IMG/VR virus record: IMGVR_UViG_3300040856_003054
Span: 72,141-136,140 of that record
From: a virus
Length of the DNA stretch: 64,000 nucleotides
Reading direction: 5' to 3' (one strand)
Shown: positions 1,133 through 27,585 of the stretch, one piece after another
How the letters are laid out: every line of letters starts with the position of its first letter
Numbering within the stretch: position 1 is the stretch's first letter
Made by a program: the position numbers and the translations under genes
Notes under the pieces: generated by a model
Told to the model about the DNA's origin: nothing
The model's database searches: none
Seen by the model: only the letters and a program-made list of their open reading frames with translations

Positions 1133-1353
1133 TGGACTTTCCAGTGTTCTTAAATAAATGGATAATCTCCAATAAGTTTCTTAAGTATACTCCATTCTGG
1201 TGGTGGTACAGGTTAATATCTCATCAAGGTTTTCGCTTTGATGATTATTATGTGTGGAAGGAGTTTTGGATGTCCTTAAATCAAGGATATATGGATATGA
1301 ACTATAAATGGGAGTTTGAACAATATTGGAGTGTAAAACCTAAACATAAATAA
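1129..1353 (+). CDS. hypothetical aromatic-rich protein
   Basis: Coupled ORF (GTGATG overlap). Confidence 0.6.
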   Translation: MMDFPVFLNKWIISNKFLKYTPFWWWYRLISHQGFRFDDYYVWKEFWMSLNQGYMDMNYKWEFEQYWSVKPKHK

Positions 1354-1414
1354 TGATGTCTGTTTGGACGGCAATCTCTACAGACAAAGATTAGGTGCTT
1401 TCGGGCACCTTTTC
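1345..1414 (+). ncRNA. candidate antisense sRNA / RNA switch cassette A
   Basis: CATAAATA at 1345-1352; stem TGTCTGT/ACAGACA; 1359-1373 complementary to 1430-1444; UUCG terminator hairpin at 1393-1410 plus T-run. Confidence 0.6.
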
Positions 1415-1417
1415 TAT

Positions 1418-1425
1418 TATAAATA
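1418..1425 (+). promoter_or_regulatory. T4-type late promoter TATAAATA
   Basis: Exact gp55 consensus upstream of the HNH gene. Confidence 0.8.
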
Positions 1426-1450
1426 ATAATGCCGTCCAAATAGAATAAAG

Positions 1451-2086
1451 ATGAACTATCTAAAGATTTATTGTAATCTTATCAGGAAAGCAGAGAATAG
1501 AACTCCACCTGAAGGTTATACGGAAAAACACCACATATTTCCTAAAAGTATTTTTGGAGATAATGATAGAGTTGTAATATTAAGTGGAAGAGAGCATTAT
1601 ATTGCTCACGCATTATTAGAAAAAGCATTTATAAAAAGGTATGGTGGAAATCACAAAAAAACTAAAAAGATGTCTTTTGCTTTTTGGTGTATGAATAACC
1701 AAAAATCAAAAAATACTTATTTAAATTCTTATTTTTATGAAAGTTCCCGAATGAGAGTTAGTGGGGAAAATAATATAGCAAAAGACCCAATTATTCGTAA
1801 AAAAATAAGTGAGAAAAAACGAGGAAAAAATCATCATCAATATGGAAAACCACATTCCCAGGAAACTAAAAATAAGATAAGTAAAAAGAGGAGTGGAAAA
1901 AATAATCATATGTCTAAACATTGGAAAATTACATTTTCCAATGGAAATGAAATTGTATTGTGTGGATTATATAAATGGTCCAGGGAAAATGGATATTGTG
2001 CTACTCATATTATTGGAGTTTGTCGTGGAAAAAGAAACTATCATAAAGATATTGTGTCAGTTGAAGAACTGGCACAAATTTCTTGA
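1451..2086 (+). CDS. free-standing HNH (Mob-like) homing endonuclease with NUMOD3-like repeats
   Basis: EKHHIFPKS...REHYIAH HNH core; GKPHSQETKNKIS NUMOD3-like motif. Confidence 0.8.
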   Translation: MNYLKIYCNLIRKAENRTPPEGYTEKHHIFPKSIFGDNDRVVILSGREHYIAHALLEKAFIKRYGGNHKKTKKMSFAFWCMNNQKSKNTYLNSYFYESSRMRVSGENNIAKDPIIRKKISEKKRGKNHHQYGKPHSQETKNKISKKRSGKNNHMSKHWKITFSNGNEIVLCGLYKWSRENGYCATHIIGVCRGKRNYHKDIVSVEELAQIS

Positions 2087-2112
2087 ATAAAACACTTAAA
2101 ATATGTTATTAT
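2053..2112 (+). promoter_or_regulatory. palindrome-associated early promoter overlapping the HNH gene 3' end
   Basis: TGTGTCAGTT-GAAG-AACTGGCACA at 2053-2076, TTGAAT at 2083, TATTAT at 2107. Confidence 0.7.
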
Positions 2113-2135
2113 GAAGAACACTAAAAAAGAAAAAA

Positions 2136-2366
2136 ATGAAAAATTTTCTGCTCACATTATGGTATTTTCCATCACATTTATGGTATAATTATAAATCTTG
2201 GAGATATGAGCAAAAATGTATAAAATACTTTGGAGCGAAACCTGAAAAGATTCTTCTACCAAAAGAACAATTCGATGCTCTTGTAGAACGATTAAATCAA
2301 CCATCAGACCCTAAAGTAGTTGAAAGATTAAAAGAGATTATGTCTAAAAAGGCTCCGTGGGAATAA
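2136..2366 (+). CDS. small protein with DUF1778/TacA-antitoxin-like C-terminal motif
   Basis: ILLPKEQFDALVERLNQPSDPKVVERLKEIM resembles the C-terminal L-x3-F-x6-L-x2-P-P motif of DUF1778 antitoxins. Confidence 0.4.
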   Translation: MKNFLLTLWYFPSHLWYNYKSWRYEQKCIKYFGAKPEKILLPKEQFDALVERLNQPSDPKVVERLKEIMSKKAPWE

Positions 2367-2511
2367 TGAAAGAATACTTTGAAAAACTAAAAAAGAGAGC
2401 AGGAGTTATTATTCTGTTCGGCCAAATGTGTATTATCATCTATCAACTTGGCACATTAGAATCAAAGAAGGTTACTATCTGTCAACCTGATACTTACCAG
2501 CAACGGATTAT

Positions 2512-2697
2512 TTGTGTAGAGCAGTGAACGATAAATCTAAAATCTTCTACAATGTCTGGTGCAATGCGTACCAAAGACGAACCATATATAAAGGAACCGA
2601 CAGAGAACACAGAGAGCACGAAACTGTGCGAATGTGTCTTGATATGAAAGATGTAAAGTTCTACCAATTTGATAGTGAGAGACCCAGATATGTTTAG
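2512..2697 (+). CDS. hypothetical protein
   Basis: ORF in tightly packed + strand run; true start uncertain. Confidence 0.5.
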   Translation: MCRAVNDKSKIFYNVWCNAYQRRTIYKGTDREHREHETVRMCLDMKDVKFYQFDSERPRYV

Positions 2698-3076
2698 TAA
2701 GCCTCTTCTTGGAACCAATACAAAGAAAACTAAACTTTCTTGGATTGAGTATATCTGGAACTCGTGTATTATTCAGGGGTGGTATAATTGCTGGTATTCC
2801 TTTAAGAACTGGGCCGATTTGATGGGCGATAATTACCAAGAATACGCTTTATTAGTATCTGATGACCCATTGGAGCAATGTATCTTATATTTCTGGGATA
2901 GTTTGGAAGATGAGATTTATCCAAAACACTTTTTGGATAGTTTACTTCAAATGGTAGACGATATTGAAACTGGCAAAGAAAAAGTATATCCACTTGATGA
3001 AGATTTCTTTGATAGAATGAAAGAACTTACTGATGGTATTGCTGTAAACCTTAACGAAAAGTTGGAGGAAGAGTGA
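2669..3076 (+). CDS. hypothetical protein
   Basis: 135 aa ORF; likely start MFSKPLL. Confidence 0.6.
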   Translation: MIVRDPDMFSKPLLGTNTKKTKLSWIEYIWNSCIIQGWYNCWYSFKNWADLMGDNYQEYALLVSDDPLEQCILYFWDSLEDEIYPKHFLDSLLQMVDDIETGKEKVYPLDEDFFDRMKELTDGIAVNLNEKLEEE

Positions 3077-3077
3077 A

Positions 3078-8486: not shown

Positions 8487-9713
8487 ATGCTTTCTCTTCG
8501 ACCTCAACAGCAAGAGTTTATGTTTCTCTCTGGTCAGCACGATAAGATGCTGACCGTTGCTCCTACCAGTGCTGGTAAGAGTATTATGATGATTGCTGAT
8601 GCTCAACGTCAACTGCAAAGCAATCCTGATTCTACAATTCTGATCGTTGCACCAAAACTACTTTTGTGCAATCAACTCTCTGATGAGTTTGAGAAGTTTA
8701 TTCCTAACACTCACATTATTCATATGCACAGTGGAGACACTGAGCACACTCGCATCACTAACTTCCTAGAACTTGCTTATCATTGGGAAACAACTCCAGG
8801 TTCTAAGACAATCTTTACAACTTATCATTCTCTGCATAAAATTGCACAAGCAGAGATTGATATTGATGTGACTTATCTTGATGAAGCACACAATGCAACC
8901 AATCGTCGTTTCTTTGATTCTGTCAAAAGTATCAGCAAGAGTTCCAAACGATTCTATTCTCTGACTGCGACTCCTAAGTTCAGTCAGTCAAGTCGTCCTG
9001 GCAATAATGATGCTGAGGTTTTTGGTAGCAAGATCTTCAGTGTCAAAGCACCAGATCTGATTGAGAATGGTAGCATCCTTGCACCTAAGGTTTCTGTTGT
9101 GCAAGTATCTGCTGCACGGGAAAAGGATAGTGCAGCAGAACGAGACTTCTATACTCTCTGTGATACTATTCTCAATGAGGATGACATGGATAAAGTTCTG
9201 GTTGTTGCACCAAATACTAAGGTTTTGAATCAGATGCTATCAACCACTGCTCTCATTCCTGAGATGCGGAACAATGGTTATGATGTGCTTTGGATTACTT
9301 CAAAGCACGGTGCCTTTGTGAATGGTAAGAAAGTTGCGAGGTCTGAGTTTCTTCATACTCTTTCCGAATATGGTGCAGATCCTTCTCGCAAATTTGTTGT
9401 CTTCCACATTGGTATTCTGACTGAAGGTATTAGTGTGCCTGGTATTCAATCCTGCATCTTTATGCGAAATCAGAACTTTGTGTCTACTGTGCAGAGTATT
9501 GGTCGTTGCATCCGTGTACATCAAAAAGACACTGAACGTATGAAGAATGGGAACTTGATTCCTGGTGATTTTGATAACTATGTCAAACCTTTTGGTAAAG
9601 TTGTGATTCCAGTGTATAATAATCGTGTTGGTATTGCTACTGCACGTCGAGTTGAGAGTGTTGTGCAGGAAGTATTTGTCAACGGTAATTTTGTTGCTGA
9701 TTATGTAAAATGA
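8487..9713 (+). CDS. superfamily 2 helicase (ResIII-like)
   Basis: APTSAGKS (motif I), DEAH (II), TAT (III), QSIGRCIR (VI). Confidence 0.85.
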   Translation: MLSLRPQQQEFMFLSGQHDKMLTVAPTSAGKSIMMIADAQRQLQSNPDSTILIVAPKLLLCNQLSDEFEKFIPNTHIIHMHSGDTEHTRITNFLELAYHWETTPGSKTIFTTYHSLHKIAQAEIDIDVTYLDEAHNATNRRFFDSVKSISKSSKRFYSLTATPKFSQSSRPGNNDAEVFGSKIFSVKAPDLIENGSILAPKVSVVQVSAAREKDSAAERDFYTLCDTILNEDDMDKVLVVAPNTKVLNQMLSTTALIPEMRNNGYDVLWITSKHGAFVNGKKVARSEFLHTLSEYGADPSRKFVVFHIGILTEGISVPGIQSCIFMRNQNFVSTVQSIGRCIRVHQKDTERMKNGNLIPGDFDNYVKPFGKVVIPVYNNRVGIATARRVESVVQEVFVNGNFVADYVK

Positions 9714-9850
9714 GTTCTAAATCTGGATTTATAACATCTGATAACTATGCTGCAGTACCTTGGGGAAAGAGGTATGTTATCCTTTACAATGGACAGCAGT
9801 TGACTGATGTAAAAACTGTCCTTCAAGCACAAAAGTTTATCAAGCAGCAC

Positions 9851-9909
9851 CGTACCACTCCTCAAAGTGGCACAGTGTTTGTTTGATATCCCTTCTTTTA
9901 CTCTATAAT
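9851..9909 (+). promoter_or_regulatory. palindrome-associated early promoter
   Basis: GTACCACT-N6-AGTGGCAC; TATAAT at 9904. Confidence 0.65.
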
Positions 9910-9932
9910 TACTTTGTCCTCCACCAAAAACA

Positions 9933-13060: not shown

Positions 13061-13064
13061 TTTT

Positions 13065-16227: not shown

Positions 16228-16231
16228 TATT

Positions 16232-16279
16232 GTGGGCAGCAACATTGCGGGGGCGTAAGGTTGTGTAAGTCCCACTTTT
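16232..16279 (+). ncRNA. variant antisense hairpin cassette B
   Basis: GTGGG/CCCAC stem plus T-run; loop TTGCGGGGG at 16245-16253 is complementary to CCCCCGCAA at 16298-16306. Confidence 0.5.
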
Positions 16280-16283
16280 ATGG

Positions 16284-16291
16284 TATAAATA
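16284..16291 (+). promoter_or_regulatory. T4-type late promoter TATAAATA
   Basis: Exact consensus. Confidence 0.8.
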
Positions 16292-16310
16292 ATAATACCC
16301 CCGCAAAAGA

Positions 16311-17353: not shown

Positions 17354-17372
17354 ATAATCAAAAACAAGAAAG

Positions 17373-17789
17373 ATGCTGACATTTAGAGAGTTCTACGAAA
17401 TCTGTGAAGGTAAGAAACCTGATACTCCTCCACACGCAGTTCCTGGGACTGTGAATAGAGATTCTAGTGGCACTCTAACATATACTCTTCAGCGTTATGA
17501 TGGACCAAAGGTTAAACCATCAAAGAAAGAAATTGAGAACCAAGTATTAGACCAGAGTGGTAGAAACAAAGTAGAAAAACATGCCAAGAGAGTGGCAAAG
17601 TCAATTAAAAAAATTGAAGAAGATATTGAAACAAGACGTAGAGAGTTGAGACAGAGACAAAAAGATCAAATGTCAGCACAAAGAGAACGTGTTGCAGGTT
17701 ATCATGCAGCACAACAAGAGAAAAAAGAAAAGGAATCAGAAAGAGAAGAACTTAAAAAAGAAATCAAGAGAGAACTCAAGGACAGTTGA
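17373..17789 (+). CDS. probable capsid-internal protein
   Basis: Late promoter AATAAATA at 17349; N-terminal MLTFREFYEICE resembles the T4 capsid-targeting sequence; highly charged. Confidence 0.5.
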   Translation: MLTFREFYEICEGKKPDTPPHAVPGTVNRDSSGTLTYTLQRYDGPKVKPSKKEIENQVLDQSGRNKVEKHAKRVAKSIKKIEEDIETRRRELRQRQKDQMSAQRERVAGYHAAQQEKKEKESEREELKKEIKRELKDS

Positions 17790-17836
17790 GGAACCGTCCA
17801 CCATTCTCACACAAGCACCTTAATCTCCTGTATATT
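17780..17836 (+). promoter_or_regulatory. palindrome-associated early promoter
   Basis: GGACAGTT-GAGG-AACCGTCC; TGTATATT -10 region. Confidence 0.65.
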
Positions 17837-17862
17837 ACATTTGTTCAGTTGAGGAACACCAA

Positions 17863-17994
17863 ATGAATCACTTTGATGATATTCAGGTTGAAGAACTTGA
17901 AAACTTTGACTTTTGTTTTGATGGTCTCTTCGATGAAGAAGAGAAAGATGCACAATCTTTCAACTCTTACCTGAACTCTAACATTGATTATTGA
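17863..17994 (+). CDS. small acidic protein (43 aa)
   Basis: Manually read ORF MNHFDDIQVEE..., GAGG SD-like sequence. Confidence 0.55.
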   Translation: MNHFDDIQVEELENFDFCFDGLFDEEEKDAQSFNSYLNSNIDY

Positions 17995-17996
17995 TT

Positions 17997-18203
17997 ATGA
18001 CTGACACTGTTAATGTTCTTCCTCACATCCGAGAACTGAAAGATACTTGGCGTCGTCAAGATTTCAGTTTCACTAAATCGCAGAAAGAAGAATACGATCT
18101 CTTGATTGCTGCTCGTCGTGAAAGGGTAAAACAACATTATAAAGAAGGAAAAGTTTGCACAATCAGCAAATCTGCAATGGACAAACTTAAAGAAGATAAC
18201 TAA
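17997..18203 (+). CDS. hypothetical protein
   Basis: MTDTVNVLPHIRELKDTWRRQDF. Confidence 0.6.
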   Translation: MTDTVNVLPHIRELKDTWRRQDFSFTKSQKEEYDLLIAARRERVKQHYKEGKVCTISKSAMDKLKEDN

Positions 18204-18269
18204 ATAATGATGCCTGAAGTTGACTGACATCTCTACAGGCAGAGGAGGAGCAGAAATGCTCCTTTTCTT
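18199..18269 (+). ncRNA. candidate antisense sRNA / RNA switch cassette C
   Basis: ACTAAATA; stem TGCCTG/CAGGCA; loop AAGTTGACTGAC at 18217-18228 is the reverse complement of 18284-18295; AGGAGCA-GAAA-TGCTCCT terminator. Confidence 0.65.
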
Positions 18270-18270
18270 G

Positions 18271-18278
18271 TATAAATA
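18271..18278 (+). promoter_or_regulatory. T4-type late promoter TATAAATA
   Basis: Exact consensus. Confidence 0.8.
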
Positions 18279-18307
18279 CTTAAGTCAGTCAACTTAAGAG
18301 CAGAACT

Positions 18308-19000
18308 ATGGTCAAAAATCCATATAGATTTTATACCTATGCCTATTTGCGTGAGGATAGAACTCCTTATTACATAGGTAAGGGTAGTGGAAGAAGAATA
18401 TATGATAAAAATGGAAGACCTTGTGGTAAACCGAAAGATAAATCCAGAATTATTTTCTTAAAGCAAAATCTAACCGAAGAAGAAGCATTCAAACACGAAA
18501 TCTATATGATTTCTGTGTTTGGTAGAAAAGATTTGGGGACAGGTATTCTTCATAATAAAACCGATGGAGGTGATGGAGTTTCTGGGGTAATAGTTAGTGA
18601 AGAAACAAGAGAAAAATTAAGAAAATCATCTACAAAATATAATAATGAAGGTCAAAGAAAATTGGCAAACAAAAAAACTCATAAAAATTATTATCTAAAG
18701 AATAAAGAAAAAATATCACGATACTATAAAGAAAAATATAAGAAAATGAGTTCTGATTTGGAATGGATGGAGAATCAAAGATTAAAACAAAGAATACCTA
18801 AAGAAAATCAAAAAACAAATAGATTGTGGAAAACTTGGAAAATAACTTTCAGTGATGGTAGAATATTGGAAATGACTGGATTATATAATTGGTGTAAAAA
18901 TAATGGATATAGTGATGGGTTAGTTTATCAGGTAGCAAAAGGCACCAGAAATAAACATAAAGATATTGTGTCAGTAGAACAACTGACCACTTACTCTTGA
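18308..19000 (+). CDS. free-standing GIY-YIG (Seg-like) endonuclease
   Basis: YTYAYLRED.TPYYIGKGSGRR...E...N; C-terminal domain shared with HNH 1451-2086. Confidence 0.8.
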   Translation: MVKNPYRFYTYAYLREDRTPYYIGKGSGRRIYDKNGRPCGKPKDKSRIIFLKQNLTEEEAFKHEIYMISVFGRKDLGTGILHNKTDGGDGVSGVIVSEETREKLRKSSTKYNNEGQRKLANKKTHKNYYLKNKEKISRYYKEKYKKMSSDLEWMENQRLKQRIPKENQKTNRLWKTWKITFSDGRILEMTGLYNWCKNNGYSDGLVYQVAKGTRNKHKDIVSVEQLTTYS

Positions 19001-19025
19001 TTTTATTCCCAATACCCGATATACT
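18967..19025 (+). promoter_or_regulatory. palindrome-associated early promoter overlapping the GIY-YIG gene 3' end
   Basis: TGTGTCAGT-N6-ACTGACCAC; TTGATT-17-TATACT. Confidence 0.7.
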
Positions 19026-19046
19026 GAAAATGTCAGATACATAAAA

Positions 19047-19946
19047 ATGACTAAAAATCTTCACCTTGAACATCCTTGTGATAGCATCCTGACAGGAGAT
19101 TTAAGTGTCTTGGATTGGTTTCATGAACCCAACTCCACTATCAGCACTAAGATGGATGGAAGTCCAGCATTAGTTTATGGAACTAATCCTGCAAATGGAA
19201 AGTGGTTCTGTGGAACAAAAAGTGTATTCAACAAAATAAAGATTAAAATAGCACACTCTCATGAAGAAATTGATCAGTTTTACACTGGGAAGGTAGCAGA
19301 AATCCTACATCTTTGTTTTGACTATCTTCCTCGTACAAAATCAATTATTCAATGTGACTGGATCGGTGTAGGAGGTTCTCAAGAATACAAACCAAATACT
19401 ATTACTTATCGTTTTCCGCAGGTAGTTAAAGAGAAAATCATTGTCGCACCTCACACAACTTATGGTGGCGGTGATGATCTCCGTGATGTATTTGCTGCTC
19501 CTCTGTGCAGCAAACTAATCAGCACAAAACACTGCAAATTCGTGCAACCTCAAGTGGAACTGAATCCTTATCGTGAAGATTTGGAGGATGTGTGTAAGTT
19601 TGCCAAGCAAATGAGCACTCTATGTGAGTTTGTGACTGCTCGCAAAGCATTAGAAATCAAAAAGGAAATAAACAACTGCATTAGGGAGCAACGGGTCGTC
19701 AATGAAGATGAAATTGCAGAAAAATGTGATTGTGATAGAAATTTGATTAGGTTGTGGAAGTTAGTGTATTCAATCAAGACAGACATGTTCATGTTCATTC
19801 ACGAAATGGATCAGATTGAATGTTCTATCAACGGTGAAGATAGTTTCCATGAGGGTTATTGTATCTCAAACAAATACGGTATGTATAAAGTCGTAGATAG
19901 AGAAGTTTTCTCATACAATAATTTCGTGACACCTAAAACTTGGTAG
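19047..19946 (+). CDS. conserved cyanophage protein with ligase-type KxDG nucleotidyltransferase motif
   Basis: MTKNLHLEHP...STKMDGSPA...EGY...KVV. Confidence 0.6.
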   Translation: MTKNLHLEHPCDSILTGDLSVLDWFHEPNSTISTKMDGSPALVYGTNPANGKWFCGTKSVFNKIKIKIAHSHEEIDQFYTGKVAEILHLCFDYLPRTKSIIQCDWIGVGGSQEYKPNTITYRFPQVVKEKIIVAPHTTYGGGDDLRDVFAAPLCSKLISTKHCKFVQPQVELNPYREDLEDVCKFAKQMSTLCEFVTARKALEIKKEINNCIREQRVVNEDEIAEKCDCDRNLIRLWKLVYSIKTDMFMFIHEMDQIECSINGEDSFHEGYCISNKYGMYKVVDREVFSYNNFVTPKTW

Positions 19947-19954
19947 GTGTCTTT

Positions 19955-19981
19955 AGACCACCTTCGGGTGGTCTTTTTTTT
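19955..19981 (+). terminator. intrinsic terminator abutting a late promoter
   Basis: AGACCACC-TTCG-GGTGGTCT plus T-run; TATAAATA at 19981-19988. Confidence 0.9.
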
Positions 19982-20009
19982 ATAAATATCTAAAAAAGTA
20001 TTGGGTAAA

Positions 20010-20813
20010 ATGGCATCAAATAAGACATTTGCGGAGTTCATGGAGATTTGTGAGAAGTTTTCGATGGCAGCAGACACATCGAAACCACAATCAGCAAAAC
20101 CAACTAAACTTCCAAAAAGTCGTGAAAGAAATGTAGGAACGCACGATGATTGGAAAGATAAAGTACCAACTGAATGGAATGATACGACAACTGAACAAAA
20201 AAAGAAAAATAAATTAAGATCAAGAGCAAGTGCAGTTGTTGGTACACAGCAAAGACAAGATGTTGAAACTGGTGTAAGAAAAGAGGAAGCACAGTTAGAT
20301 GAACTTCGTATCACAAGAATGTCGCCAGAGAAGCAAGAAGTAAAGAGACGTGCTAAAAACATCAAAGACATTAGAACAAAGAGAGAAACACTTGCTGCAT
20401 TGATGAGACATGCAGAACTTCAAAAGAAAGGATTGGCAGATGAAGTTGAGTATGATGGTGAGAATGTTGATGAAGTATTGATGGTAACTCCTGCAAGAAA
20501 GAAACCAACCAAGAAAGTTGTAAAGAGTGTTGTCAAGATAGAAAAACCAGATCCAAGTGATCCTGATTATGTAAGAAAGCAGAGAGCATATGTCAAATCA
20601 AAGCAGCAAGAGGAAATGGTTGACTATGAAAGATTAAGAAGTGGTGCAGAAGCAGCAACTGATAGAGCAGCAGCAGTAAAGAAAGCAAAACAACAAAGAC
20701 AACAAAGTGATGCAGAAGCAGCAAGAAGTGCATTTAGAACAAAAGGTGTTCCATTTAGTGATGCAAAAGGTTCTGGTCACATTGTAAATGGTAAGAAAGT
20801 ATATGCCAGTTGA
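20010..20813 (+). CDS. probable capsid-internal (processed) protein
   Basis: Late promoter; MASNKTFAEFMEICE CTS-like N-terminus; multiple xxE sites; charged. Confidence 0.55.
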   Translation: MASNKTFAEFMEICEKFSMAADTSKPQSAKPTKLPKSRERNVGTHDDWKDKVPTEWNDTTTEQKKKNKLRSRASAVVGTQQRQDVETGVRKEEAQLDELRITRMSPEKQEVKRRAKNIKDIRTKRETLAALMRHAELQKKGLADEVEYDGENVDEVLMVTPARKKPTKKVVKSVVKIEKPDPSDPDYVRKQRAYVKSKQQEEMVDYERLRSGAEAATDRAAAVKKAKQQRQQSDAEAARSAFRTKGVPFSDAKGSGHIVNGKKVYAS

Positions 20814-20859
20814 GATTCTGTCACATCATCTTGTTTTTTGAGTCAAAATCTGTTATTCT
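20802..20859 (+). promoter_or_regulatory. palindrome-associated early promoter
   Basis: TATGCCAGT-N6-TCTGTCACA; TGTTATTCT -10. Confidence 0.6.
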
Positions 20860-20881
20860 AATCAAGTAGCAAAACTTTTTC

Positions 20882-21043
20882 ATGAATCCTTCCGAAATCC
20901 GTAAAGTAGCACGACTTCTTGAATATGAAGATGATTGTCGTGCAGCACGTCAGGAGTTTATGGAACATGGTGTAAGATTTTATGATAAATTTGGAACTGG
21001 TCACATTGTTGATGGTGTGAAGAAATATACTGAGAAGTATTGA
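20882..21043 (+). CDS. 53 aa early protein paralogous to the C-terminus of 20010-20813
   Basis: Manually read: ...AARQEFMEHGVRFYDKFGTGHIVDGVKKY. Confidence 0.65.
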   Translation: MNPSEIRKVARLLEYEDDCRAARQEFMEHGVRFYDKFGTGHIVDGVKKYTEKY

Positions 21044-21044
21044 G

Positions 21045-21104
21045 TGTGACAATCCGAAAGGTGTCACCCAAAATGAGCACAGCATCCTAAATCGTGTATT
21101 GTAT
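21045..21104 (+). promoter_or_regulatory. palindrome-associated early promoter (ATGAGCACAG subtype)
   Basis: TGTGACAAT-N6-GGTGTCAC, AAATGAGCACAG, TGTATTGT. Confidence 0.65.
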
Positions 21105-21127
21105 CTGTATTGAAGCAAATCACTCCC

Positions 21128-21364
21128 ATGCCTTCCTTCATTCAACACACAACCAATCCAACCTTTGTTGAAGTTGGTGTAGAGTTCTTTCTTCCCACTG
21201 ATTCTACTTCCTGGATTCCGAATGGTTTTGACATGGTAGAGTTTTGTGTGGATGCAGATGAACTCGAAGATGATCGTTATGCTACACTTGAAGAGGTTGC
21301 AGAACAATTCTGCAAGAAAATCGGTGTAGTGTTTTCTCAAGTAATCGAATCGGATTTGTGGTGA
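21128..21364 (+). CDS. acidic hypothetical protein
   Basis: ATG after promoter. Confidence 0.6.
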   Translation: MPSFIQHTTNPTFVEVGVEFFLPTDSTSWIPNGFDMVEFCVDADELEDDRYATLEEVAEQFCKKIGVVFSQVIESDLW

Positions 21365-21444
21365 TTATGGCAACTTGTGGAATCTTAGTGCTCCTTGCAT
21401 ACTCTCTGGGTGCATTGCAAATTATAGTTTTGCATCGACTGCTC

Positions 21445-21504
21445 AGGGACAATCCCTGAAGTGTCCACCAGACGCACCAGAATCGTCTCTAGTGCGTCTA
21501 TAAT
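21445..21504 (+). promoter_or_regulatory. palindrome-associated early promoter
   Basis: GGACAAT-N6-AGTGTCC; TATAAT at 21499. Confidence 0.6.
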
Positions 21505-21532
21505 GACTTTGTTGAATCAAACCACGCAACTC

Positions 21533-21754
21533 ATGGTTTTCCACTATACGACCAACTGGAAAGAGAATAAGGTGTGCCAGATGTTCATTCAGGAGGTTAC
21601 ACCAGAGTTTCAAGAAGGTGACAACAAATACGTTGCTATTGCTCTCAATCCCGAAACAAACAAGAGCATGGTGATGTCGAAACCCCGCAGTCATTATGAT
21701 ACACTGCAATGGGTTCGTAAGTGGTGTGGTTCCTTTTGTATTCTTCCTGCCTGA
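21533..21754 (+). CDS. hypothetical protein
   Basis: ATG downstream of promoter. Confidence 0.55.
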   Translation: MVFHYTTNWKENKVCQMFIQEVTPEFQEGDNKYVAIALNPETNKSMVMSKPRSHYDTLQWVRKWCGSFCILPA

Positions 21755-21785
21755 TTCTTTTCACTCAACTCACCATCATTTACTT

Positions 21786-21935
21786 ATGACTACCAAAACT
21801 TGGGTTGTTAAACTTGAGATTGCGATTGATGAGAATAGTCATCCTCGCAAGTTTATCCCTGATGCTATTGCTGAATGTCTGAATCTTGAAGAAGGTGAAG
21901 ACATTATTGATTACAACTTTGTGTGTCTTGATTGA
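21786..21935 (+). CDS. small hypothetical protein
   Basis: MTTKTWVVKLEI...HPRKFIPDAI. Confidence 0.5.
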   Translation: MTTKTWVVKLEIAIDENSHPRKFIPDAIAECLNLEEGEDIIDYNFVCLD

Positions 21936-22099
21936 TGAAAAACTATCGAGTTCGTGTTGAAACTAACGATGGATGTGTCACTATCTGGCATGAGAAATCG
22001 AAAGCAAAAAGCGCAGACAAATTGATTCTCAATCGTGTCTACAATCAACTCTGTGGACTAAACATTAAAGAAATCTCTGTTAATCCTTCTGTTTGAATC

Positions 22100-22576
22100 A
22101 TGGCAACTTGGAGAGCAAAGTGTTGGTTAGGTTCTTCTTCTGGTTATCAAGAACTGGAAGTGCAATCTAACACAACCTACGGAGCAAAAGAGCAGTTTAA
22201 GAGAATCTATGGTGCAGAGCAAATCATCAACCTTCGGGAAGTTCGTGGAGAATCTACATCAGGTTCTGGAATTGGTGATGTTGGAGGAACTGTGGGTTTG
22301 ATTGGTTTGGTTGCACTTTGTTGGGCATTTGTATCATTTACACCGTGGATTCTCATGGGTTTGGGTGGTGCTTTTGGAACTTGGGTTGGTGAACAAGTAA
22401 CAGGACAAAGCATCGAAGAGTATAATGAACGTGATGATGGTTTGGGTAACAAACGAGCATCAGTTGTTGTTGCGCTTGCTCTCATTCTAGGTGGAATTGG
22501 TTTTGTGAAAGGTGATGAAATCAAAAAAGGTTTTGATGCTGATAGTGTTCCTGCTGAGGTGAAGAAAACTAAATGA
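22100..22576 (+). CDS. membrane protein, hypothetical
   Basis: Soluble N-terminal domain plus hydrophobic Gly-rich segments. Confidence 0.65.
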   Translation: MATWRAKCWLGSSSGYQELEVQSNTTYGAKEQFKRIYGAEQIINLREVRGESTSGSGIGDVGGTVGLIGLVALCWAFVSFTPWILMGLGGAFGTWVGEQVTGQSIEEYNERDDGLGNKRASVVVALALILGGIGFVKGDEIKKGFDADSVPAEVKKTK

Positions 22577-22782
22577 TTATCACACCAGATAAACTAAAAC
22601 TAATCAATGCACTTTCTGCAGAGTATGAGTATCTGTGCCATGATGACTTTGACCCAGATGTTGATACAACACCTGAAGAATACAATAAGATGCTGAGAAA
22701 AATGTCCTATGAAGAATTGATCGAAGAGGCAAGTATTGGTGAAGAATATACCCTTGAAGATTACCTAGGAACTTGGTTATGA
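22573..22782 (+). CDS. acidic hypothetical protein
   Basis: EYEYLCHDDFDPD. Confidence 0.6.
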   Translation: MIITPDKLKLINALSAEYEYLCHDDFDPDVDTTPEEYNKMLRKMSYEELIEEASIGEEYTLEDYLGTWL

Positions 22783-22979
22783 ACTACACTGACATCACAA
22801 CACTTGAGAATTGCCCCGAGTGTGGTGCTAACTGGGTTGATAAACGCATCCCTGAAGAACTCTGGGATCGCTATTCTCCTCCCTATTTCTATAGTCGTGT
22901 GATAGGAGTTGAGTTGCTCCATGAAGATCGAATCAATCATTGGTTGTGCCCTGATTGTAACCACAAGTTTCCCCGATGA
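22773..22979 (+). CDS. zinc-ribbon protein
   Basis: CPECG...CPDC. Confidence 0.65.
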   Translation: MVMNYTDITTLENCPECGANWVDKRIPEELWDRYSPPYFYSRVIGVELLHEDRINHWLCPDCNHKFPR

Positions 22980-23230
22980 TTTACTCTAACCTCTCAAAGA
23001 TTCGTCCTAAACTAAGGACAACTGGACGTGTTTCAGGCAATTTCGGAAAATTGAAAGTTGTCGCTGGTTCATCACTCAATGAGATCGGTGGTGATGGTAA
23101 CATAGGTGCCACACAAGATGAGTACCTGAATCGTCTTTATTATGCTTTTGATAACACCACAGACACTAAACTTCAGCAGTTTCTCTATCAAGAAATCAAA
23201 AAGATTCACGTTCAAAGAGGAACCTGGTGA
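22976..23230 (+). CDS. hypothetical protein
   Basis: Coupled ORF; stop lies within the next palindrome. Confidence 0.6.
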   Translation: MIYSNLSKIRPKLRTTGRVSGNFGKLKVVAGSSLNEIGGDGNIGATQDEYLNRLYYAFDNTTDTKLQQFLYQEIKKIHVQRGTW

Positions 23231-23295
23231 CAGTTGTAGAAGTGTCACAATAAATGAGCACAGAGACCAAAATCATGTATTATTAAAGAGTCAAA
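23226..23295 (+). promoter_or_regulatory. palindrome-associated early promoter (ATGAGCACAG subtype)
   Basis: GTGACAGT-N6-AGTGTCAC, AAATGAGCACAG, TGTATTAT, AAAGAGTCAAA. Confidence 0.7.
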
Positions 23296-23308
23296 GCAAT
23301 TCAAGCAC

Positions 23309-23662
23309 ATGACTACTGCTTTCGCTGACTTCGTTGCACAGCAAGATGCAAAGAACACAATCCAACTTAACATTGTTAAGTATTGTCTGATGCTGTGTGA
23401 TGCTCTTGGACATGATGCTCCTGATGGGTATCACTACTCTCTAGATTCTTCTGGTCGCAAGTATCACAAAGTATTCATGCACATTGGTGATCGTAGGGAT
23501 TCTATTCATGCTTTTATTGATAAGCAAACTGGTTCTGTGTATAAACCAGCAAGTGTAAAAGCGCCTGCAAAAGGTCAGCGTTACAATGTGCTGAGTATTG
23601 AATCTCGTGAGCAAATGTTTGAGCGTTGCGATTGGTCAGGATCTTATCTTTACGCACGTTGA
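23309..23662 (+). CDS. conserved phage early protein
   Basis: GRKYHKV...SIHAFIDKQTGSVYKPAS.KAPAKG.RY. Confidence 0.7.
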   Translation: MTTAFADFVAQQDAKNTIQLNIVKYCLMLCDALGHDAPDGYHYSLDSSGRKYHKVFMHIGDRRDSIHAFIDKQTGSVYKPASVKAPAKGQRYNVLSIESREQMFERCDWSGSYLYAR

Positions 23663-23676
23663 TACAAACTAAAGGG

Positions 23677-23745
23677 TGTGACAATCAAATCTCTGGCACA
23701 CTCGATGGTTTTCCTCCCCAAAATCCTGTATATTAAAAGAGTCAA
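23677..23745 (+). promoter_or_regulatory. palindrome-associated early promoter
   Basis: TGTGACAAT-N6-TCTGGCACA; TGTATATT; AAGAGTCAAA. Confidence 0.7.
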
Positions 23746-23758
23746 AAACAACAACGAC

Positions 23759-24043
23759 ATGACCACTGCAACCGCTTCCCGCACTTTTGTTCATCAGTCT
23801 GTGAATAGCAGCGCAATCTCTCAACTCTCTGTGATCTCTGGTGAGATTGAAGGAACCTATGATCTGCTGGTGATTTTTAACAGCAACCCCGACAAAGTGT
23901 ATCATTATGCTTTTGAGGATGATGGTGCTGCTGCTCGCTGGATTGATCTTCTGAGTGATGAAGAATCCCGCAATGCAACATCTTGGGGTCGTGAATTGCA
24001 TCGTGCATTGAAGCACGGTGACCTCGAAACTGTCGAGGTGTGA
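23759..24043 (+). CDS. KTSC-like domain protein
   Basis: VNSSAIS...LLVIFNS...VYHY...SWGR. Confidence 0.55.
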   Translation: MTTATASRTFVHQSVNSSAISQLSVISGEIEGTYDLLVIFNSNPDKVYHYAFEDDGAAARWIDLLSDEESRNATSWGRELHRALKHGDLETVEV

Positions 24044-24111
24044 CAATCTGAAAACCCGCACAAGGGGGATTGCAAAGTCCCCCATTACCTGCAATACTTA
24101 AAGAGTCAAAG
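24039..24111 (+). promoter_or_regulatory. palindrome-associated early promoter
   Basis: TGTGACAAT...CGCACA; TTGCAA; CTGCAATACTTAAAGAGTCAAAG identical to 29475-29497. Confidence 0.7.
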
Positions 24112-24124
24112 GAATCGCAACCAA

Positions 24125-24388
24125 ATGACTGAGTTTCCAACACTCCAATCCAAAGATGGGACGATGATTGTATCATTCTATCCCATCAAAGTTCCATTTG
24201 GTAACATCAGCGAAACCTGGACACTTAAGGTTCTTGAGTGGGAGGGTATTGAGACAATCTCCAAGAAATGTATCAACAAAGCAGATCGAATCCGTGAGAT
24301 TGCTGATCGTCTTGCCCATGATTATGTTGTTGTCAAAGATAACACGAATCTCCCCCAACTTGCCAACCCTATGATGGGTGCTTGCTGA
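24125..24388 (+). CDS. hypothetical protein
   Basis: MTEFPTLQSKDGTM. Confidence 0.6.
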   Translation: MTEFPTLQSKDGTMIVSFYPIKVPFGNISETWTLKVLEWEGIETISKKCINKADRIREIADRLAHDYVVVKDNTNLPQLANPMMGAC

Positions 24389-24576
24389 TTATGAAGTTCA
24401 TTGGTAACTGCATTAACTCTTTTGATGAGAATGGTGATTGTATCATCCCTTCACTTCCATTCGCAAATGTTACTGAATTTGCTCAACTTGTGGAAGAAAG
24501 TGATAATGTAGAGATTGGTGATTTTATCATTCAATACGACGAAGAAACCGACGTTCATTCGTTCTACTTTAACTGA
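24382..24576 (+). CDS. acidic hypothetical protein
   Basis: Packed ORF. Confidence 0.55.
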   Translation: MLIMKFIGNCINSFDENGDCIIPSLPFANVTEFAQLVEESDNVEIGDFIIQYDEETDVHSFYFN

Positions 24577-24578
24577 TT

Positions 24579-24785
24579 ATGCAATTCCAAGTTACTGAAA
24601 TTGAGTTCGATTTCACTGATGATCTTGATGATGAAGCACTTGATGTTGAAACCCAAGATGAAATCTACGATGAAGTGATTGGTAGTTTCTGGGAAGCAGA
24701 TGATGAAGATGACCTCATCGAAGAACTAACATCTGCCTTTGGTTGGTGCATCAAATCCATTGATTATCGTCACATTCTAAAATGA
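24579..24785 (+). CDS. acidic hypothetical protein
   Basis: MQFQVTEIEFDF...WEADDEDDLIEE...GWCIKSIDY. Confidence 0.65.
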   Translation: MQFQVTEIEFDFTDDLDDEALDVETQDEIYDEVIGSFWEADDEDDLIEELTSAFGWCIKSIDYRHILK

Positions 24786-24812
24786 GAATCGCACTGTGGA
24801 AAGTGTAAAGAA

Positions 24813-24885
24813 TGTGTGCCAGTCAAATCACTGGCACACAAAATGAGCACAGCACCCCAGATGGTGTATTCTTAAGAAGTCGAGA
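24813..24885 (+). promoter_or_regulatory. palindrome-associated early promoter (ATGAGCACAG subtype), perfect copy
   Basis: TGTGTGCCAGT-CAAATC-ACTGGCACACA perfect 11-bp inverted repeat; TGTATTCT. Confidence 0.8.
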
Positions 24886-24897
24886 GGAACACACCCG

Positions 24898-25215
24898 ATG
24901 GCAGTCACCAAAACCGCAAGCAGCAATCGAGTCCACGATAACATCGACGAGAACGATGTTTGTATCATCAACCTGGGACGCAAGCACAACTTTAACATTC
25001 TCCCAGTTGTGATGCGTCAGGAGACCGAAAAAGCAATCCAGTTTGGTTCGATTCTCACGCCACGTCACTCTATCTGGTTTCCGAAGAAAGCACTGCGTGA
25101 GTGTAAAGAAGTGCCTGGAACTTTCACGATTGCGCCTTGGTTTTCTTTCGATTCTTGGGGTTGCTTGTTTCTGAGCAGCAACATGCGTCGTTCGATGTCT
25201 ACTCTGGAGTTCTGA
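24898..25215 (+). CDS. hypothetical protein
   Basis: ETEKAI...IWFPKKAL. Confidence 0.6.
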   Translation: MAVTKTASSNRVHDNIDENDVCIINLGRKHNFNILPVVMRQETEKAIQFGSILTPRHSIWFPKKALRECKEVPGTFTIAPWFSFDSWGCLFLSSNMRRSMSTLEF

Positions 25216-25218
25216 ATC

Positions 25219-25404
25219 ATGACTGCATTTGTAACACCAAAGAGCAAGAAAGCACGCAACCGATTCTGTAACTTAATGGGACAAGAATCGGAGTGTGTGA
25301 TTGAACAAAACAAAGGTGATCGTGTGTTTCTGCGATCACTGAATGGTAAAAACTTCTTCTGGGTTAATCTTCTCAACGATTCTGATTGGAGCATTGAACT
25401 ATGA
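25219..25404 (+). CDS. hypothetical protein
   Basis: VTPKSKKARNRFCNLM...FFWV. Confidence 0.65.
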   Translation: MTAFVTPKSKKARNRFCNLMGQESECVIEQNKGDRVFLRSLNGKNFFWVNLLNDSDWSIEL

Positions 25405-25586
25405 CTTTTGTTGATGCACTTTTTGCTTCTGGTTATGATTATGACAAATACGTTGGTGCATTTATGAAAGAAGAATCCAATGGTGATTTGCATACTTATC
25501 TTAATGTAGAAGATGATGAATGGATCTATGAAAAGTGTGATGCTGATGATAATGTTCTGTCTACCGTTCCTTTCACTCTGAACTGA
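25401..25586 (+). CDS. acidic hypothetical protein
   Basis: Coupled ORF. Confidence 0.55.
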   Translation: MTFVDALFASGYDYDKYVGAFMKEESNGDLHTYLNVEDDEWIYEKCDADDNVLSTVPFTLN

Positions 25587-25588
25587 TC

Positions 25589-25813
25589 ATGAATCTCTAC
25601 ATTCTCAATGAAGTGCTGTATGATTACACTGATGGAATGTGTGTGATTGCAGCAGAATCTATGGGTCGATGTGAACAACTTTTTATGAAAGAGTTTAGTG
25701 GTGATTATAATAAAGAAGAGCGACAAAAAGAGTTCAGTGCTGCACCAATTAAAGTGATTGAAGGTATCAATCATCCTGAAGGAATTGTAAGTTATGTGTA
25801 TGGAGGTGGTTGA
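25589..25813 (+). CDS. hypothetical protein
   Basis: LYDYTDGMCVIAAES...VYGGG. Confidence 0.6.
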   Translation: MNLYILNEVLYDYTDGMCVIAAESMGRCEQLFMKEFSGDYNKEERQKEFSAAPIKVIEGINHPEGIVSYVYGGG

Positions 25814-26003
25814 GATGAATCAAGCACAACTCATCAATTCGATTGAACAACAACTTGAAAATCTGATGCACTTTGATGGTGATCTTGCCGATGATTTTGA
25901 GTTAATGTTGTATGATGATCAAGAGCAACCAATTATCAAGAACTTCACACCACAAGTGTTAGAACAACTCACTCAAATTGTCTATGAACTTGATAACAAC
26001 TGA
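25794..26003 (+). CDS. hypothetical protein
   Basis: Likely start MNQAQ. Confidence 0.5.
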   Translation: MCMEVVEMNQAQLINSIEQQLENLMHFDGDLADDFELMLYDDQEQPIIKNFTPQVLEQLTQIVYELDNN

Positions 26004-26157
26004 TTTTTCTGTGATTTCCTTGTAGCGCATGACCCAACCTACCATGCCACTGAAATTGCAGAAAAATCACGTTTCTGCTTAAGTGGTGGACTGCGATCTC
26101 AGCGAGTCGCATGGTGAGATCTGACAGGATACCAGCAGCAAGCATCAAATCTCACCA
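26001..26157 (+). ncRNA. candidate structured non-coding element with three hairpins
   Basis: 18-bp stem 26001-26018/26052-26069; stem TGCGA/TCGCA at 26092-26111; stem TGGTGAGAT/ATCTCACCA at 26112-26157; no substantial ORF. Confidence 0.45.
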
Positions 26158-26158
26158 G

Positions 26159-26230
26159 TGTGCCAATTCAATCTCCGCACACTATTGCTTGATTTCTCAT
26201 CCGATTCATGGGATTCTATAGAAGTCGAAA
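26159..26230 (+). promoter_or_regulatory. palindrome-associated early promoter
   Basis: TGTGCCAAT...CCGCACA; TTGATT; GATTCT; AAGTCGAAAGG. Confidence 0.55.
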
Positions 26231-26243
26231 GGAACACAACCAC

Positions 26244-26420
26244 ATGACCAACGAAATTCTTCAATCTCTCCCACAGTTTATTCTTGAGATGGATGCTGAT
26301 TGGGAGATGGTTTGTGACTTTGTTTTGTCACAAGATTCGTCCATGAGATTTGTTAGTGCTGAAAGTGATTCTCTATGGTTAGCAGTTGAGAAACTTTTCC
26401 TGGAGGAGATTGATGCCTGA
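26244..26420 (+). CDS. hypothetical protein
   Basis: ATG after AGGA. Confidence 0.55.
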   Translation: MTNEILQSLPQFILEMDADWEMVCDFVLSQDSSMRFVSAESDSLWLAVEKLFLEEIDA

Positions 26421-26604
26421 AATGTTTGCTGTTCAACCTAAGTCATTTGGTGAGTTTGATGATTATTCTGCAGAGTATTGTTCAAGTTATGATGATGCTC
26501 AAGATGTTGCATTTGATTGGTCTATCAGTGAAGGTGGAGCACCAATGATCATCTGGAGAATTACATCGAACAATCCTATTCGCTGGTCTGAGGTGATTGC
26601 CTGA
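26386..26604 (+). CDS. hypothetical protein
   Basis: Likely start MPEMF. Confidence 0.5.
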   Translation: MRNFSWRRLMPEMFAVQPKSFGEFDDYSAEYCSSYDDAQDVAFDWSISEGGAPMIIWRITSNNPIRWSEVIA

Positions 26605-26738
26605 TGTTCACTATTAAGTATCAAACTCCTTACAATCAATGTGAGTGGAGAACACAAAGTTTCTCTACACTTGAAGAAGCAAAGAGAATGGTAGAGTTCT
26701 ATCGTTCTTGTGGATCACCTGCCCAACTTGTTTGAATT

Positions 26739-27035
26739 ATGACAACTGCAATCTTTGATTCTGCTTTCTTCGGTTATTCTAATCTGCCTGATTTGATTGA
26801 GGTTAATGATCAAAAACTGATTCCAATTAAAACTCTAAAGGTATTTCAAAAAGGAACACATTTTGTTCAGTATGCTTGCAAAGTTCTAAAGATTCAGATT
26901 CATCGACCAGTCAAAGGTTTGTTGTGTGTAGAAGATCAGTATGCTCAAGTTCTTGAGTATTTGTATCTGAATTATAGCAATCCTTCTGGACGTAATGATG
27001 CACAAGCAATTCTAAATGTGTTTTCTATTCAATGA
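26739..27035 (+). CDS. hypothetical protein
   Basis: 98 aa ORF. Confidence 0.55.
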   Translation: MTTAIFDSAFFGYSNLPDLIEVNDQKLIPIKTLKVFQKGTHFVQYACKVLKIQIHRPVKGLLCVEDQYAQVLEYLYLNYSNPSGRNDAQAILNVFSIQ

Positions 27036-27283
27036 TCAAATCTCTTCTGAATCTGATACCAGTCAAACACGGATCTTATACTCAAGAAGGTAATCAGATT
27101 CGTCGAACATTCTCATTTGGTTATAGTTACATTATCACCACATGTAAGACATCAAAAGAAGCACAACGTATCGTAAATCAATTCAATTTGTTATGACTAA
27201 AACAAGTTTCTATCAAGGTCAATCGTATTCTAAGTTTGATGCCTATTATGAAGAGGAAGATTGTGAGCACGATGATTATATGA

Positions 27284-27490
27284 GTGCAGAAGATTACGAA
27301 CGTCGTGAATACTATCGGACTCATGATTGAAACTGATTTCTTTATTCTGAATGGTGAACAGTATCAAGAGTATTATACTGAAGCAACAAAGGTAGGTGTT
27401 ACTCTTGATTACTATTTGATGGAGTTTACGGATACTGAAGGACCAGATGTTGTATATGATGGAGAGAATTGGGTTGAGATTAGTGAATAA
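27284..27490 (+). CDS. acidic hypothetical protein
   Basis: Likely start MIETDF; GVTLDYYLMEF. Confidence 0.55.
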   Translation: MQKITNVVNTIGLMIETDFFILNGEQYQEYYTEATKVGVTLDYYLMEFTDTEGPDVVYDGENWVEISE

Positions 27491-27552
27491 ATAGTGATGC
27501 TTAAATGAGTCGCATCTTTAAGTAGAGAGGGGGCAGAAATGCTCCTTTTCTT
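27486..27552 (+). ncRNA. candidate antisense sRNA / RNA switch cassette D
   Basis: AATAAATA; stem TGCTTAAA/TTTAAGTA; CTTAAA-T-GAGTCGCA at 27500-27514 complementary to 27566-27579; GGGGCA-GAAA-TGCTCC terminator. Confidence 0.6.
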
Positions 27553-27553
27553 G

Positions 27554-27561
27554 TATAAATA
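27554..27561 (+). promoter_or_regulatory. T4-type late promoter TATAAATA
   Basis: Exact consensus. Confidence 0.8.
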
Positions 27562-27585
27562 ATACTGCGACTCTTTAAGACAAGA

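Follow-up and report, generated by a model that had tools for sequence, protein, structure and literature searches.

The homing endonuclease genes (HEGs) in a 64,000-nucleotide stretch of viral DNA (IMG/VR record IMGVR_UViG_3300040856_003054, positions 72,141 to 136,140; hereafter the window) are preceded by a cassette that, to judge from its sequence, is a movable control unit of about 110 bases with an arm complementary to the leader of its own gene. We consider it likely, by analogy with known HEGs of T4-type phages, that this unit is a portable self-silencing cassette for late expression, in which a cis mask of the T4 I-TevI/mobE type is combined with an internal terminator hairpin. The window makes up the right-hand end (64 kb) of a virus contig of 136,140 bp (G000; 35.8% G+C), whose completeness is estimated at 64% (CheckV). 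The contig belongs to a T4-like cyanophage, and its nearest named relative is Synechococcus phage S-SRM01, with similarity over short stretches only. Four HEGs lie in the window and 11 in the whole contig. A first-pass annotation of the window had counted three, and missed the HNH gene at 16311, which stands behind a second form of the cassette.

To describe the unit we compared the regions upstream of 80 IMG/VR loci encoding relatives of the protein of gene 18308 with those of 10 cassettes of the contig, which gave 90 upstream regions, 74 of them distinct. In class I, which accounts for 67 of the 74, an upstream late-promoter-like box (box 1) is followed by a spacer, a local hairpin that carries the arm, a separate hairpin with a T run, an embedded TATAAATA late promoter (P2) and the leader, part of which pairs with the arm (anti-arm). 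In class II (7/74) the arm lies inside the loop of the terminal hairpin itself. The arm is 10–16 nt long and is the reverse complement of the first 10–16 nt of the leader. Between the predicted start and the AUG the leader spans 17–25 nt (about 21 nt), and in the predicted late mRNA its first base is also the first base of the anti-arm. ATAAATA is found within 60 nt of the start in 85 of the 90 HEG upstream regions, and NATAAATA likewise occurs in 85.

In the window, TATAAATA sits 4–5 nt before the anti-arm in all four cassettes, and every cassette carries, between its two arms, a G+C-rich hairpin with a T run (Table 1). The first-pass annotation had described three of these units, and their coordinates and pairings are all confirmed, as is a 29-mer common to cassettes 2 and 3 (18250–18278 and 27533–27561); likewise confirmed, across dozens of loci, are the shared layout, the complementarity peculiar to each locus and the covariation of the scaffold stem, all of which it had noted. 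Folded as single RNAs, the class I cassettes form a long-range arm-leader helix that encloses the G+C-rich hairpin (z = -6.8, -6.0 and -6.3 for cassettes 1, 2 and 3, with 0/200 shuffles as stable). In cassette 2 this helix can be extended over AAGAGCA to 18302.

The pairing of arm and leader is maintained while its sequence changes. Cognate pairing was found in 73 of the 74 distinct regions, with locus L040 as the exception. Across the 74 regions the mean energy was -24.3 kcal/mol for cognate and -12.5 kcal/mol for non-cognate combinations, and the cognate partner ranked first in 40 and among the top three in 65. The arms fall into about 25 specificities (families). With one representative for each of 25 families the cognate mean was -21.2 against a permuted -8.7 kcal/mol, no permutation out of 10000 reached a value as low, and 24 of the 25 arms had their cognate leader as best partner.

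When 64 class I cassettes were aligned with MAFFT without regard to structure, RNAalifold returned the same helix, with double (compensatory) changes at 12/12 pairs. A fixed-column count found 84.4% of the cells paired, compared with 67.1% for shuffled and 36–47% for slid sequences, and 258 double-change cells where 91 were expected. Within the arm-leader pairing, G-U outnumbers A-C by 67 to 20, indicating that the pairing belongs to the + strand RNA and not to DNA. The T runs and TATAAATA likewise lie on the + strand (18:1), and an RNA from the opposite strand was rejected on these grounds. While the scaffold is conserved, the arm alleles are hypervariable, and a given arm allele can stand before nucleases of different families. 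The first-pass annotation had regarded each arm and leader as an orthogonal pair. This is overstated, because two of the ten contig cassettes are duplicates with identical arms, and two others, before nucleases of different families, differ by one compensated base pair.

The contig as a whole holds 18 TATAAATA sites on the + strand and one on the - strand. Ten of the 18 precede HEG-like open reading frames (ORFs), all ten with arm-leader complementarity, and among the 18 sites such locus-specific complementarity is found at HEGs only. The earlier statement that every HEG carries the unit is thus true of the window (4/4) and nearly so of the contig (10/11): upstream of the eleventh HEG, at contig position 39803, there is TATAAATA with a 41-nt leader but neither arm nor hairpin.

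A separate pattern scan for class II gave 53 stretches, corresponding to 41 distinct loci with sufficient flank. P2 and a complementary leader follow in 39 of these (mean -26.6 kcal/mol); one of the remaining two is a chance match and the other has a variant P2 missed by the search expression. The pairing ends 0–3 nt from the ATG in the 39 loci, where box 1 reads TAAATA in 12 and TAAAT[CT] in 7 and is lacking in 20.

From the architecture and the covariation we infer termination, masking and late bypass. Transcripts arriving from upstream, whether early, middle or started at box 1, would mostly end at the internal hairpin. In RNA that reads through, the leader and the ribosome-landing region would be locked with the arm in a 12–20-bp helix and so remain untranslated, while RNA started at the embedded TATAAATA would lack the arm and be translatable late in infection. 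The duplex would lie at about -20 to -6 in class I and extend up to the ATG in class II. For the P2 RNA, the read-through RNA and the RNA with its arm shuffled, respectively, the mean computed unpaired probability over positions -15 to +4 is 0.62, 0.38 and 0.51 in class I and 0.70, 0.28 and 0.55 in class II. This mask core is common to both classes, and it is supported by class II, which keeps the pairing in 39/39 loci although 20 of them have no box 1.

Several observations weigh against such a mask. The T-run hairpin stands between arm and leader, so read-through RNA, the sole substrate of a cis mask, may be rare, and box 1 and the local 5′ hairpin would have no role in a mask acting only in cis. 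The class I helix stops 6–12 nt short of the AUG, and accessibility is computed to fall only moderately. A canonical Shine-Dalgarno sequence is not evident. From metatranscriptome contigs came a single weak hint. The class II cassette of the window is no more stable than its shuffles (z = -0.73), and support for it comes from comparison with the other loci. Finally, a terminator consensus scan flags one of the four hairpins in the window, that of cassette 1 (1393–1410), and leaves those at 16232, 18241 and 27524 unflagged.

Table 1. Cassettes and homing endonuclease genes. Positions are those of the window unless the contig is named; paired segments are given with their partners.
Feature	Position	Strand	Basis or remark
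Cassette 1, box 1 (CATAAATA), late-promoter-like	1345..1352	+	predicted start G 1358; -13..-6 rule, Nolan 2006
Cassette 1, predicted 60-nt P1 RNA	1358..1417	+	folding
Cassette 1, 5′ hairpin displaying the arm	1358-1363/1380-1385	+	arm 1359-1373; then hairpin 1393-1410 and T run
Cassette 1, P2 TATAAATA	1418..1425	+	predicted start near 1431
Cassette 1, leader segment (anti-arm)	1430..1444	+	complementary to 1359-1373, 15 bp, one G-U
Mob-like HNH homing endonuclease, 211 aa	1451..2086	+	phrog_655 E 5e-34; NUMOD3 above cut-off
Class II hairpin and T run, upstream of gene 16311, no box 1	16232..16279	+	39 further loci
Class II hairpin, stems and arm			outer stem GTGGG/CCCAC, inner GCAAC/GTTGT; 9-nt arm 16245-16253 in apical loop
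Class II P2 TATAAATA	16284..16291	+	
Class II leader segment	16298..16306	+	complementary to 16245-16253, 9 bp; ends 4 nt before ATG
Second HNH homing endonuclease, 258 aa	16311..17087	+	phrog_655 E 1.7e-33; NUMOD3 above cut-off
Cassette 2, box 1 (ACTAAATA)	18199..18206	+	predicted start G 18212
Cassette 2, predicted 59-nt P1 RNA	18212..18270	+	folding
Cassette 2, 5′ hairpin	18212-18216/18236-18240	+	arm 18217-18228; hairpin 18241-18268 with T run
Cassette 2, P2 TATAAATA	18271..18278	+	
Cassette 2, leader segment	18284..18295	+	complementary to 18217-18228, 12 bp, perfect
GIY-YIG-like homing endonuclease, 230 aa	18308..19000	+	
Cassette 3, box 1 (AATAAATA)	27486..27493	+	predicted start G 27499
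Cassette 3, predicted 55-nt P1 RNA	27499..27553	+	folding
Cassette 3, 5′ hairpin	27499-27505/27517-27523	+	arm 27500-27514; then hairpin 27524-27551
Cassette 3, P2 TATAAATA	27554..27561	+	
Cassette 3, leader segment	27566..27579	+	complementary to 27500-27514, 14 bp, one bulge
GIY-YIG-like homing endonuclease, 254 aa	27586..28350	+	phrog_15526 E 1e-29; phrog_314 'homing endonuclease' E 7e-13
Eleventh HEG-like ORF, short, 162 aa	contig 39754-40291 (HEG at 39803)		phrog_314, NUMOD3

Box 1 itself resembles a late promoter. Of the 66 class I cassettes with arms, 64 have an invariant TAAATA at a fixed spacing of 5–6 nt ahead of the local hairpin. The motif across class I is N[A/C]TAAATA; among the 64, 49 have NATAAATA as the 8-mer and 15 have NCTAAATA. 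Both forms are documented variants of late promoters in the passages cited here: NATAAATA is reported as a cyanophage late-promoter motif (PMC2984593), and late promoters of Aeh1 are reported to have CTAAATA from -12 and to initiate 6 nt past the motif (PMC1524935). In the contig these motifs are strand-biased (+:- of 45:2 for NATAAATA and 15:4 for [AT]CTAAATA, compared with 22:21 for NTTAAATA) and are found about 20 nt before tail-fibre, tail and baseplate genes. An open frame of at least 40 codons lies upstream in 53 cassettes, and its stop precedes box 1 in 26 of them; we therefore rejected the explanation of box 1 as the mere stop codon of the upstream gene, a role that TAA 18201–18203 does also serve in cassette 2. 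In one case the cassette comes after a tRNA-like end, and in some others after divergent promoters. The predicted start coincides with the first base of the 5′ hairpin in 63 of 64 cassettes. On this sequence evidence an upstream promoter at box 1 is credible.

Such a promoter could make the arm a free antisense small RNA (sRNA), either as an addition to the cis mask or as the main function, a possibility that we take seriously but tentatively. Box 1 would then be an active T4-type late promoter for a two-hairpin RNA of 48–65 nt, whose loop would nucleate on the 5′-terminal bases of the P2 mRNA and then zip over the leader, so that HEG translation would be throttled, or cleavage triggered, even late in infection. 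Consistent with this, the transcript predicted from box 1 (P1 RNA) has two hairpins, the first beginning at nt 1–2 in 63/64, and the T-run hairpin forms in 63/64 folds. The local 5′ hairpin covaries as well (cognate -6.8 versus permuted -4.5 kcal/mol, 0/10000 permutations as low); on the MAFFT alignment, which places its 3′ strand inconsistently, the signal is weaker, with 75% of the cells paired. Pairing between two separate molecules is favourable for cognates even after the cost of opening the hairpin, with a mean net gain of -12.3 kcal/mol (-8 or lower in 61/64) as opposed to -2.8 for non-cognates. Box 1 is also part of the insert, to judge from the HEG-less alleles described below.

Other evidence speaks against a free sRNA. 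Class II keeps its pairing even though TAAATA is present in only 12/39 loci, and box 1 is a perfect TATAAATA in only 14/64 cassettes, in contrast to most P2 sites. The terminator scan, with its single flagged hairpin, and the arms shared within the contig also count against it, as does the lack of orphan arm modules: a structural scan of 1,212,069 bases gave 88 hits, of which 85 are followed by P2 and the other three look like chance. Three of four RNA-library runs, all in the form of assembled contigs, which do not resolve RNA ends, were mapped together with one DNA run on window 8600–28599, where cover was low and patchy. One RNA-library contig (17862–18250) breaks off within the 5′ half of the hairpin of cassette 2, at a point that a DNA contig runs past, which is a single weak hint; it also joins the upstream gene to the arm, so that, if it is RNA, the arm is also on a longer transcript. 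The cis mask and the free sRNA are not mutually exclusive. To judge from the sequence, the class I arm is probably, if only tentatively, also made late as a free RNA of about 56 nt, and class I cassettes may be two-gene modules, in which a T4-type late promoter drives an antisense RNA of about 56 nt with a re-programmable loop seed directed against the 5′ end of the nuclease mRNA.

Two further explanations were weighed against the self-silencing cassette. We find it unlikely that the unit is an element of RNA processing or stability, in which the duplex would be an RNase III-type site separating the upstream mRNA from the HEG mRNA or, in a variant, the hairpins would protect upstream messages at their 3′ end or the HEG mRNA at its 5′ end, with a possibly activating effect. 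Helices 12–20 bp long would suit such an element, and a 5′ hairpin with a terminator is a classic pair of end-protecting structures. The layout is also partly generic punctuation: at window 19955–19988 a strong terminator-like hairpin is directly followed by TATAAATA before an ORF that is not an HEG (20010–20813; no family match). That junction, however, has no arm-leader complementarity, from which it follows that terminator plus late promoter is generic whereas the arm, box 1 and local hairpin are HEG-specific. Leader complementarity confined to HEGs (10/18 TATAAATA sites) and a duplex that covers the ribosome-landing region of a leader of about 21 nt, as in the T4 precedent, both argue for masking instead. 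A function at the level of DNA, with the inverted repeat as a recombination, cruciform or nuclease-operator site, is very improbable. The arms do form an inverted repeat flanking a promoter, and I-TevI binds an operator at its own late promoter according to the passages cited here (PMC2988022), but the excess of G-U over A-C is expected for pairing of a one-strand RNA, bulges are tolerated, and the same arm alleles precede different nuclease families. We also rejected a leader peptide starting at the spacer ATG: even cassettes that are almost identical differ in its frame, and in many the spacer ends in ATA instead.

The extent of the insert was read from alleles of the 18271 locus. Two IMG/VR contigs lack the HEG, and in these the TAA of the upstream gene is directly followed by ACTGACCAC, a half-site belonging to the next early-promoter region. 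The left junction, TAAATAATGATG, is common to three alleles with the HEG, each of which has a different arm. The absence of the box from HEG-less alleles, together with this shared left junction, indicates that box 1 travels with the insert, and a native junction sequence was rejected because it is missing from the HEG-less alleles. The right end of the insert lies inside the palindrome GTCAGT-N6-ACTGAC, which is completed by the nuclease ORF itself; the last codons of gene 18308 run into it (18970–18987), in the downstream early-promoter region. An HNH gene and a GIY-YIG-like gene have nearly identical ends in coding sequence (2056–2073 and 18970–18987, respectively). This shared end completes a palindrome GTCAGT-N6-ACTGAC/ACTGGC, of which HEG-less alleles have the right half-site only. 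The insert appears to rebuild an operator-like site that insertion disrupts.

The closest precedents are T4 I-TevI, I-TevII, I-TevIII and segB and Aeh1 mobE, in which a late promoter is nested in a hairpin that masks the ribosome-binding site (Edgell, Gibb and Belfort 2010, PMC2988022). As far as the passages cited from that source go, the likeness extends to HEGs of T4-type phages, a stable RNA helix over the ribosome-landing region, a TATAAATA-type late promoter between the arms and a predicted late RNA without the 5′ arm. Unlike the simple hairpin described there, the cassette has a terminator-like hairpin inside the loop, the 5′ arm of class I has a covarying hairpin of its own, preceded by a second late-promoter-like box, and one mobile family with hypervariable arms and a conserved scaffold is common to several nuclease families. 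Free-standing HEGs in 'fractured genes' were described from Global Ocean Sampling (GOS) metagenomes by Dassa et al. 2009 (PMC2677866): 15 of 16 5′ untranslated regions had a hairpin, 10 of them including TATAAATA, and two mutually complementary motifs in the hairpins were read as mobE-like translational control. Those HEGs are likewise phage-like, from marine and fresh water, and their hairpins are probably the same or a sister cassette. The first-pass annotation knew of no description of this architecture, which must be narrowed accordingly: the text of that paper, its supplementary motif figure aside, describes the hairpins with TATAAATA and complementary motifs but mentions no second promoter, internal terminator or small RNA. 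An antisense RNA of about 225 nt, CfrI of cyanophage S-PM2, overlaps an HEG and psbA (PMC2984593, PMC12197685). As described in the passages cited, CfrI is likewise linked to a cyanophage HEG but comes from the opposite strand, without the modular arm and leader design, and the part of a 2025 review of phage sRNAs cited here names only CfrI for cyanophage HEGs (PMC12197685). In our literature search, a second promoter or small RNA of the HEG cassette was not found described, and the S-SRM01 genome paper has no occurrence of 'late promoter', 'hairpin', 'small RNA' or 'terminator'. What is new relative to print is box 1 before a covarying 5′ hairpin in class I; the logic of the cis mask was already known.

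Antisense control elsewhere offers partial parallels. In IS10/Tn10, RNA-OUT and RNA-IN are encoded on opposite strands of one DNA segment. As there, a selfish element would limit its own nuclease or transposase through a short, stable hairpin RNA whose loop nucleates on the extreme mRNA 5′ end and which covers the start region, but the arm and target of the cassette are separate segments of the same strand. The c4 RNA of P1/P7 and the CI RNA of P4 arise by processing of a longer transcript, and the genes under their control serve immunity or encode antirepressors. Like them, the cassette has its regulator upstream on the same strand as the target, with covarying loop-target pairs that differ between relatives; its targets, in contrast, are nucleases behind a late promoter. 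Type I toxin-antitoxin systems resemble it in placing a small RNA with an intrinsic terminator, which masks the leader, beside a potentially harmful gene, and differ in that both RNAs of the cassette would be late and co-directional.

HEG family profiles (phrog_655 'homing endonuclease' and NUMOD3) match HNH genes 1451 and 16311, neither of which matches Pfam HNH_3, and relatives of the Mob-like HNH protein (gene 1451) occur in 491 phage records. Across the contig, NUMOD3 matches are confined to cassette-type HEG ORFs and the eleventh HEG. The label GIY-YIG, given in the first-pass annotation to genes 18308 and 27586, is only moderately supported. By sequence, Pfam GIY-YIG (PF01541) has no match anywhere in the contig, these proteins match nothing in Pfam above cut-off and nothing in a PDB sequence search, and LEM-3_GIY-YIG reaches only E 0.2–1.1. 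Among 47 relatives of the GIY-YIG-like protein, 2 match a GIY-YIG profile at E < 0.01 and 33 match NUMOD3. In an AlphaFold model (pLDDT 82), residues 1–88 align with GIY-YIG domains (UvrC N-domain, PD-T4-3; Z 5.2–7.2) and residues 162–229 with the DNA-binding part of I-HmuI (Z 8.7). Foldseek returned nothing at E <= 0.001.

The cassette is also found in cultured phages. S-SRM01 has seven copies on one strand, each followed by an ORF of 178–261 aa, and six of the seven ORF N-termini resemble nuclease families of the contig by eye. It occurs in B3/B23 and, in its class II form, in Sf-CH5, whereas the HEG of phage S-N03 has no cassette. A BLAST search of the cassette against the phage collection found only S-SRM01 and B3/B23, plus unrelated terminators, and Rfam 15 gave no match at the gathering score in the whole window, with chance-level hits only on cassette 2. 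At one S-SRM01 locus (L167, MW015081.1 51291–51992) the deposited coding sequence starts at a GTG inside the cassette hairpin. The ATG after the leader, 54 nt downstream of the deposited start, agrees with all relatives, and the deposited start is probably mis-called.

Some further observations concern the surroundings of the cassette. At seven IMG/VR loci (L015, L021, L022, L026, L027, L029 and L035) it adjoins a divergent gene, whose own late-promoter-like motif (TATTTAT, read on the + strand) lies 5–6 nt from box 1, forming an inverted pair of motifs. At contig 29280–29300 (L001) a class I cassette directly follows a sequence like a tRNA 3′ end (T-arm-like GGTTCGAATCC). The late-promoter-like C-variant ACTAAATA is also found 20 nt upstream of psbA (photosystem II D1, phrog_182; contig 892–1981). 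Downstream of the third HEG noted in the first-pass annotation, window 28500–28640 holds two direct repeats of about 30 nt (..TAAATGTG.-.-AGGTCTTGTGAT..), each after CTTATAAATGT. DNA contigs from another sample break at window 27296 and 27598 and then run into unlike sequence, and the sequence before the break at 27598 resembles a class II-type leader. It may be that some strains of this population have another cassette joined to this nuclease ORF at about codon 4.

Taken together, the cassette would show how selfish nucleases stay harmless in large phage genomes, by bringing their own terminator, promoter and mask, in cassettes that insert precisely between transcription units. It explains annotation errors such as the HEG start inside a hairpin in S-SRM01, and it can be tested in the cultured phages S-SRM01, B3/B23 and Sf-CH5. 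Dozens of specific RNA-RNA pairs on one scaffold form a natural set for tests of antisense recognition or for orthogonal regulators. If the free sRNA is real, a class of sRNAs made from late promoters would be added to the biology of T4-type phages. These would be the first sRNAs regulating in trans to come from the late promoters of such phages, with at least 25 specific sRNA-leader pairs on a constant scaffold travelling with several unrelated families of selfish nucleases.

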